A DNA stretch of 41,469 bases, from NCBI GenBank assembly GCA_043802685.1, contig JAZDKT010000078.1, positions 1 to 41,469 of the forward strand, written 5' to 3'. Source of the stretch: Candidatus Falkowbacteria bacterium. Lineage in GTDB: Bacteria; Patescibacteriota; Patescibacteriia; Patescibacteriales; VMTK01. The DNA itself is not shown here. A report on this DNA, generated by a model with database tools, continues below.

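Follow-up and report, generated by a model that had tools for sequence, protein, structure and literature searches.

The gas-vesicle island consists of 22 co-directional ORFs, all on the minus strand, that fill positions 23887-40101, with families assigned by Pfam and NCBIfam scans. Using these assignments, we were able to recognize the accessory set that is essential in haloarchaea: three GvpL_GvpF proteins, GvpG, GvpO, GvpK and two further Gas_vesicle-domain proteins of the J/M type, all above the Pfam gathering scores. A 67-residue alignment links GvpA to its Anabaena counterpart (PDB 8gbs), with an E value of 9e-29. The start of GvpN on record is the ATG at 37759, and the exact TTG-start version is not on record. 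The gene list of the sequence-only reading is correct by these scans, and profile assignments together with synteny confirm its main claim, a real gas-vesicle locus with a co-directional chaperone and cytoskeleton complement.

Genes of the gas-vesicle island and of its surroundings (window positions; scores from Pfam and NCBIfam profiles)
Feature	Position	Strand	Assignment or remark
Cro/C1-type HTH gene	40831-41199	+	divergent from gvpA, upstream
GvpA	39883-40101	-	PF00741 61 bits; NF006874 124.7 bits vs cut-off 100
178-aa helical protein	39096-39632	-	no family
DnaJ-type zinc-finger protein	38533-38838	-	PF00684; four CxxCxGxG motifs in translation
172-aa helical paralog	37832-38350	-	
GvpN	36830-37771	-	TIGR02640 332.3 bits vs cut-off 266.8 (AAA+ ATPase)
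115-aa protein	36473-36820	-	family not recognised
112-aa winged-helix protein	36124-36462	-	
Hsp20	35548-36114	-	
Cdc48/VAT ATPase	33240-35450	-	CDC48_N 72.7 bits, CDC48_2 38.1 bits, two AAA and two AAA_lid_3 domains; full length
135-aa coiled-coil protein	32866-33273	-	
153-aa winged-helix protein	32412-32873	-	
Actin-fold ATPase	31265-32341	-	Volactin PF25216, 320.4 bits vs cut-off 35; full length, profile positions 1-321 of 321
GvpF/L fused to J domain	30093-31160	-	PF00226 55.5 bits at residues 273-324
114-aa hydrophobic protein	29585-29929	-	
Middle GvpF/L	28780-29616	-	frameshifted in window contig
Tandem Get3/ArsA ATPase	26656-28665	-	PF02374 448 bits; TIGR00345 425.7 bits vs cut-off 135, two stretches
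GvpG	26419-26652	-	
GvpO	26086-26394	-	
GvpF/L	25223-26071	-	
GvpJ/M-GvpK fusion	24663-25238	-	
GvpJ/M	24307-24618	-	
Bactofilin	23887-24252	-	
PrfB	6580-7677		housekeeping flank

The overlaps and short gaps that had been quoted in favor of co-transcription are real, except that the 28662/28665 pair holds only without a 1-nt poly-A insertion. The two winged-helix proteins are paralogs as claimed (E 3e-8), as are the two helical proteins (E 1e-8); a paralogous relationship between the 135-aa and 115-aa proteins is ruled out by their comparison. The presumed ComEC-like remnant found no match in any family search. Across the whole window, an Rfam scan at gathering thresholds found no known riboswitch or sRNA and a tRNA scan found no tRNA, and the stretch therefore contains no known riboswitch, sRNA or tRNA integration site. 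Consensus scans were uninformative, yielding 77 promoter-like sites against 56 expected and 18 terminator-like sites against 15 expected. A strong hairpin at 38.9 kb was considered as a conserved attenuator following gvpA and the 178-aa gene. Since it occurs only in the window allele and in one contig identical to it, and the other loci are without it, we do not count it as part of the system.

The same type of cluster was observed in many other genomes. In a protein collection the window actin has 1282 relatives, the closest being 56-81% identical and mostly without an organism name; those named among the close relatives are nearly all Patescibacteria or Minisyncoccales, with Omnitrophica names at 57%. 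A profile search of one genome per GTDB species gave 166 actin relatives, and the best 80 of these 166 loci were kept and searched with all 23 window proteins. In 37 loci the actin is at least 52% identical to the window protein, and 30 of these have two or more gvp families in the available flanks, the seven exceptions being five short contigs and two of 9-13 kb. Cdc48 is found in 25 of the 37 loci, Hsp20 in 24, Get3/ArsA in 14 and the zinc-finger protein in 12. None of the 43 loci with distant actins (≤47% identity, mostly Planctomycetota) has two or more gvp families; one of them has a single weak GvpA match. The carriers are labelled as Patescibacteria, Omnitrophota, Aerophobetes (a single-cell genome), Elusimicrobia, Nitrospirota, Planctomycetia (including Ca. 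Scalindua rubra), Lentisphaerae/Victivallis, Chloroflexi/Anaerolineae, Saganbacteria and Bacteroidetes.

The common gene order starts with gvpA, helical repeat protein(s), the zinc finger, gvpN, (the 115-aa and winged-helix genes), Hsp20, (ArsA) and Cdc48, and continues with gvpF/L(-J), actin, gvpF/L, gvpG, (gvpO), gvpF/L, gvpK and gvpJ/M. In one Minisyncoccales MAG the genes follow the order of the window, starting at the divergent HTH gene and ending at the last gvpJ/M; only the bactofilin is missing. Specific to Patescibacteria or to the lineage of the window are the J/M-K fusion, the 114-aa and 135-aa proteins and the bactofilin; among the loci searched, the bactofilin has one other case, again in a Patescibacteria MAG. 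Judged by gene content and order, the window locus is one member of a widespread and conserved cluster type that spans multiple phyla.

Genes that neighbor an organelle cluster can also be there by chance, and the extra genes could be general stress and cytoskeleton genes that have no dedicated role in gas vesicles. Several of them do belong to generic families with housekeeping roles elsewhere, the bactofilin and the 114-aa and 135-aa proteins are confined to close relatives, and the Volactin homologs of haloarchaea and Planctomycetota do not adjoin gvp genes. However, in about 25-30 loci, whose labels span at least ten phyla, the genes for Cdc48, Hsp20, the actin and the J-domain GvpF/L lie in between gvp genes, with short gaps or overlaps, and one J domain is physically fused to GvpF/L. 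Identity to the query separates two sets of actins, with 52% or more in every one that adjoins gvp genes and less in every other, and the sets also group apart in a rough NJ tree calculated without bootstrap. Conserved interleaving across phyla argues that the extra parts belong to the system, and we consider chance neighborhood improbable.

Some of these parts have been described in gas-vesicle operons before. Two-domain ArsA homologs and Hsp20 were reported in gvpN-L-F-G-J-K-M operons of Bacteroidetes/Chlorobi, cyanobacteria, a delta-proteobacterium and an acidobacterium, including Pelodictyon/Chlorobium luteolum, Polaribacter irgensii and Anabaena/Nostoc, and the ArsA homolog was proposed to energise a step of biogenesis (Castillo and Saier 2010, PMC2963123). 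Hsp20 also adjoins gvp genes in an actinobacterial single-cell genome (PMC7325909). ArsA and Hsp20, which the sequence-only reading had placed outside the described gvp sets, were thus already published in gvp operons in 2010, and its view of a unique expansion gives way to the recurrence of the same extra genes in loci labelled as at least ten phyla. The published clusters (PMC2963123) resemble the island in having a tandem ArsA/Get3 ATPase of ~640-670 aa and an Hsp20 within a gvpN-F/L-G-J-K-M(-O) operon, with ars genes absent nearby, whereas Cdc48, actin, the J-domain fusion, the zinc finger and the winged-helix proteins are unmentioned there and conserved here and in about 25-30 other MAG loci. 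The literature that we searched, mainly open full texts, provisionally gave no Cdc48-type ATPase or actin in a gvp cluster and no gvp genes in Patescibacteria/CPR. Apparently undescribed so far are the actin/Cdc48 module, the repeat family, the winged-helix proteins that resemble adaptors, and the presence of such a locus in CPR.

With the p-vac and c-vac clusters of Halobacterium salinarum (gvpACNO, gvpDEFGHIJKLM) the island shares the core genes A, N, O, F, L, G, J, M and K, an alpha-crystallin-like protein in the role of GvpH and a repeat or helical protein after gvpA. It differs in being without GvpC (Pfam), GvpD, GvpE and GvpI, in the fusion of J/M with K and of F/L with a J domain, in the added Cdc48, Get3-like, actin and zinc-finger genes, and in lying on a single strand except for the divergent HTH gene. 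The gvpAPQBRNFGLSKJTU cluster of Bacillus (Priestia) megaterium, which is used for heterologous gas-vesicle expression, is a one-strand operon that encodes accessory proteins beyond the haloarchaeal set and has no classical GvpC. The island is similar in all three respects, as a bacterial operon on one strand with extra accessory proteins and no classical GvpC, yet its accessory set is based on chaperones, an unfoldase and an actin, and none of its family-less ORFs has an NCBIfam or Pfam match to GvpP, Q, R, T or U.

One group of added genes encodes putative chaperones and unfoldases. Cdc48 is closest to Thermoplasma VAT (5g4f; E 1e-216, residues 8-683), with which it shares the N-D1-D2 architecture and aromatic residues (FY and Y) in GKFYGE and SKYIGE at the expected pore-loop positions, as read from the translation rather than from an alignment with VAT. 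Unlike archaeal VAT/Cdc48, this copy is bacterial, lies inside an organelle cluster and ends in ...NQMQAPKAS, with no HbYX motif for docking to the 20S proteasome; the missing motif is consistent with a proteasome-independent role. The tandem Get3/ArsA ATPase carries the deviant Walker A motifs GKGGSGKT and GKGGVGKT and one CxxC per half. It scores well below the equivalog model of the ArsA arsenical pump (TIGR04291, 216 bits against a cut-off of 650), and Pfam and NCBIfam scans of the window found no arsB, acr3, arsR or arsD. The J domain of the GvpF/L fusion retains its HPD motif ('YHPDK'), and the fusion was rejected as a full DnaJ (TIGR02349, 47.6 bits against a cut-off of 377).

Two of the small proteins encoded in this part of the island have similar C-termini. 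All eight members of the aligned 115-aa family end in [LIVMF]-x-Tyr-COOH (e.g., ...KGKIVLGY, ...MSLEY and ...MPLSY), as do seven of 14 members of the 112-aa winged-helix family (e.g., ...GKLILNY), either exactly or with an additional Gly. The same tail is found in 23 of 3447 background ORFs (0.7%). We hypothesize that the shared tails dock on a common partner, which could be the N domain of Cdc48, the actin cleft or the shell.

The actin is complete in its nucleotide-binding motifs, with D32-G34-T35, G200-G201-G202 and G304-G305-T306 invariant in 19 homologs. An AlphaFold (AF2) model (pLDDT 80.9, pTM 0.81) has MreB 4czm (E 2.9e-13), MamK 5ljv (TMt 0.71) and BeeR 8r2n as its best Foldseek folds, and the family profile matched a single protein among PDB sequences, MamK, at E 5.6e-4. 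Membership in the MamK family itself is rejected (NF040964, 24.9 bits against a cut-off of 400). As with MamK, which aligns magnetosomes together with MamJ, an organelle island here has its own bacterial actin; the magnetosome is a membrane vesicle, whereas the organelle here would be a protein-shelled gas vesicle. Volactin of Haloferax volcanii, from the same Pfam family, is a cell-shape factor in the rod-to-disk transition, and the paper that describes it is silent on gas vesicles (Schiller et al. 2024, PMC10869688). The haloarchaeal homologs are 43-46% identical to the window actin and do not adjoin gvp genes (in Halogeometricum the gene is near rdfA and an SMC-like gene), whereas the window actin is from a bacterial subfamily that is nearly confined to gvp clusters.

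In most Patescibacteria loci the gene directly upstream of actin encodes the 153-aa winged-helix protein. A winged helix is confidently predicted at residues 1-72 of this protein (pLDDT >94); a disordered, basic linker follows, and then a C-terminal helix with a consensus, EEKKLNLGxxIEKAVSFLK, that 25 homologs conserve. Fold comparison points to MarR and to AspA, a centromere-binding protein of a plasmid, with weak E values of 6e-3 to 1e-2. Its position and domain layout make the 153-aa protein a candidate adaptor of the actin.

This arrangement recalls ParR-ParM, where the gene beside that of the actin-like ATPase likewise specifies a small protein with a DNA-binding fold, a flexible linker and a conserved C-terminal helix. 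The pair could then be a ParMRC-like module that partitions the DNA of a gvp-carrying mobile element and does not position vesicles, and the likeness of the winged-helix domain to AspA and the behavior of the island as a recently exchanged unit would both fit. Unlike ParR, however, the protein has a winged helix and not a ribbon-helix-helix, its context is a gas-vesicle cluster, and centromere repeats were not identified. The island is flanked by chromosomal housekeeping genes, and integrase, relaxase, replication gene and tRNA are all absent in or beside it. In most phyla the actin is embedded among gvpF/L genes and a close homolog of the 153-aa protein is often missing. A plasmid search with the actin returned only haloarchaeal volactin homologs that do not adjoin gvp genes, and so gave no support for a plasmid-partition origin. 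Altogether, we regard a DNA-partition module as very unlikely and favor an adaptor of a vesicle-associated actin.

GvpC is known for its position, its helical character and a variable number of repeats, and it is not universal among known gvp clusters. No ORF of the window matches Pfam GvpC (PF01304, Gas_vesicle_C, 33-aa repeats), and NCBIfam likewise gave no match. The 178-aa and 172-aa proteins align as one family, and members of this family directly follow gvpA in the Saganbacteria and Patescibacteria loci. In the loci of Omnitrophota, Nitrospirae, Lentisphaerae and Planctomycetia they come first in the gvpN-side block, and gvpA was not detected upstream of them in the fetched stretch, which often starts there. 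A homolog from Omnitrophota has a 33-aa period, with offsets of 33, 66 and 99 and scores of 67 and 54 against 29 ± 4.6 for shuffled sequences; the Nitrospirae homolog has a 51-aa period (score 93) and the Lentisphaerae homolog a 65-aa period (score 117). The repeat nature is clear only in these longer homologs: the 178-aa copy has a marginal 51-aa duplication, which scores 42 where shuffled sequences reach at most 40, and the 172-aa copy has no self-repeat signal. Sequence homology between the family and GvpC was not detectable, and we treat these proteins as candidate functional analogs of GvpC that are not members of its family. The earlier statement that the locus has no GvpC-type repeat protein stands for Pfam GvpC and needs to be qualified for this family, with its 33-aa repeats in Omnitrophota.

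The function of each added part is inferred from its family, and the whole account of the system is built on sequence inference. In the mechanism that we propose, the canonical gvp core would work with a GvpC-like repeat scaffold; Hsp20, the zinc-finger protein as a holdase, the J domain as a recruiter of DnaK, the Get3-like ATPase and the VAT-like Cdc48 would handle aggregation-prone shell subunits; and the actin with its winged-helix adaptor would organise or partition the vesicles. We tentatively suggest, at less than even confidence, that an actin subfamily dedicated to gvp clusters and distantly related to haloarchaeal volactin, together with a Cdc48/VAT unfoldase, could define an unrecognized gas-vesicle pathway in many uncultivated anaerobic phyla, ultra-small CPR bacteria included. 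This pathway would comprise MamK-like filament positioning or partitioning through a winged-helix adaptor with a conserved C-terminal helix, active unfolding and recycling of the shell protein, and small cluster proteins with [LIVMF]-x-Tyr-COOH tails as clients or adaptors; the CPR cells could use the buoyancy to disperse from host to host or from one stratum to another. Interest in gas vesicles comes from their role in buoyancy and from their use as genetically encoded reporters for ultrasound and MRI. The field still asks what chaperones the very hydrophobic shell protein, how vesicles are positioned and passed on to daughter cells, and which accessory genes hold back heterologous expression. 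An actin, an unfoldase, a Get3-like ATPase and a J-domain recruiter of its own make the island a source of concrete candidates for those steps.

A CPR-type host, as had been assumed, is supported by the label of the record as Candidatus Falkowbacteria and by PrfB, whose best named matches are from Patescibacteria, Parcubacteria and Falkowbacteria at 71-83% identity, with one labelled only 'bacterium'. NCBI lists the CNNM protein encoded in the window as MFH0923727.1, in a MAG of the Patescibacteria group, Parcubacteria group. A mis-assembly of two organisms had been named as one of the results that would overturn the finding. The junction runs from the bactofilin through a 100-aa pilin-like ORF, an MFS gene and RtcB to a LeuRS with an inserted serine-hydrolase domain and CNNM, and it is identical in four assemblies from different pipelines and samples: ENA ERZ27247124 (70-kb contig), GCA_018899735.1 (52.6 kb), JGI 3300015049 and Logan SRR27456247. 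An identical bactofilin is encoded by at least 23 contigs. On the gvpA side, sister contigs continue with the HTH gene and then NrdR and NrdD, and in other Patescibacteria-labelled MAGs the island adjoins TyrRS, a class-A PBP (PBP1) and PolX. The recurrence of the junction in four assemblies, together with both flanks, makes a mis-join very unlikely.

A related concern is that the contig or bin could be wrong, with an island from, for example, Omnitrophota or Nitrospirota joined or binned with CPR DNA by mistake. Third-position GC content (GC3) is 0.31 in the island and 0.43 in the flank, the cluster type is common in non-CPR phyla, and the island is near-identical across assemblies with differing flanks, a pattern that collapsed assemblies can yield. 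Against this, the same junction with its unusual LeuRS insertion recurs across ENA, NCBI, JGI and Logan samples, NrdR and NrdD continue on the other side, other Patescibacteria-labelled MAGs carry the island beside different housekeeping genes, and the Patescibacteria Cdc48 and GvpN proteins cluster together in rough NJ trees without bootstrap (the actin tree, equally rough, has two Patescibacteria groups). Placing the island in the wrong host is, in our judgment, highly improbable, and we read it as resident in CPR genomes.

The middle gvpF/L gene is frameshifted at a poly-A run at 28783, which counts ten A in the window (A10) and nine (A9) in every other assembly that reaches the site. The insertion ends the gene at 28780 and removes its conserved C-terminal ...KFIYIGPIPAFNF motif. 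It is missing from seven of eight other assemblies compared, and the eighth ends before that position; in the seven (L087-L090, L092, L094 and L095) the protein is 296 aa long and its gene overlaps the ArsA start codon by 4 nt. The extra base may have arisen through an error in sequencing or through slippage that can revert.

To some extent, such a lesion is what a decaying relic of a transfer into CPR would look like, in which genes are kept and vesicles are not made, and CPR genomes are reduced and buoyancy is unexpected there. However, the lesion is a single A in an A9/A10 run that other assemblies lack, every other gene is intact, and over 10.4 kb only 15 differences separate the strains. 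The Minisyncoccales MAG likewise has all of its genes intact. Between the window and this ortholog set (40-88% protein identity), nonsynonymous differences are far below synonymous ones in canonical and non-canonical genes alike; dS is saturated, making the dN/dS values rough: 0.04 for GvpA, 0.07 for GvpN, 0.08 for Cdc48, 0.12 for actin, 0.13 for both GvpF/L-J and the 115-aa protein, 0.16 for ArsA and 0.18 and 0.36 for the helical proteins, with no value for the 153-aa winged-helix protein. The purifying pattern and the intact orthologs count against a decaying relic, which we think unlikely. The usual assumption is that CPR bacteria are tiny, live attached to hosts and are non-motile, and an intact island in them bears on their lifestyle: with a flotation organelle, they would be expected to have a free phase of vertical migration, and there would be limits to the cell size below which gas vesicles no longer pay.

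The sequence-only reading had called the locus compatible with horizontal acquisition, from its composition and its spacers. The locus is indeed somewhat richer in AT than the housekeeping part, with GC3 of 0.26-0.39 in all 22 island genes against 0.41-0.49 in 11 of 13 flank genes (6.5-23.5 kb), the exceptions being a T4SS-pilin gene (0.29) and a 23S_rRNA_IVP-like gene (0.19). The 7-8-nt tandem repeats of the housekeeping spacers are also absent inside the locus, as had been noted. The compositional deviation is modest, and codon usage specific to gene classes could cause it instead. Pfam and NCBIfam scans found no integrase or transposase family in any ORF, the tRNA scan found no target, and the sole repeat near an island edge is a 19-nt tandem repeat at 23431-23486.

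Comparison of strains gives a clearer picture. Relative to three contigs (L087-L089), the flank at 13.9-23.5 kb is 90.7-94.8% identical and the pilin-like ORF ~88%, while the stretch from 23831, just 3′ of the bactofilin, to 34253 has 15 differences in 10.4 kb, or 99.86% identity. A near-identical block of assembly machinery is thus common to populations that are 5-9% apart in housekeeping DNA. The simplest reading of this pattern is recent recombination or transfer of the island, i.e., a gene-specific sweep. The discordant divergence of island and flank is stronger support for horizontal acquisition than base composition. The hallmarks of integration (integrase, tRNA, flanking direct repeats) were not found, and we regard horizontal exchange as plausible.

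Four further assemblies (L092-L095) are 99.83-99.85% identical to the window at 26829-37816 and 98% identical at 39884-41401, with about half of the mismatches in the latter stretch inside gvpA. Between these stretches, at 37817-39883, the 172-aa, zinc-finger and 178-aa genes are 74-76% identical or unalignable, and their products in L092-L095 are 188, 102 and 181 aa long. The shell and scaffold cassette occurs as divergent alleles, and this strain mosaic provides a natural experiment on which parts of the island tune the properties of the vesicles.

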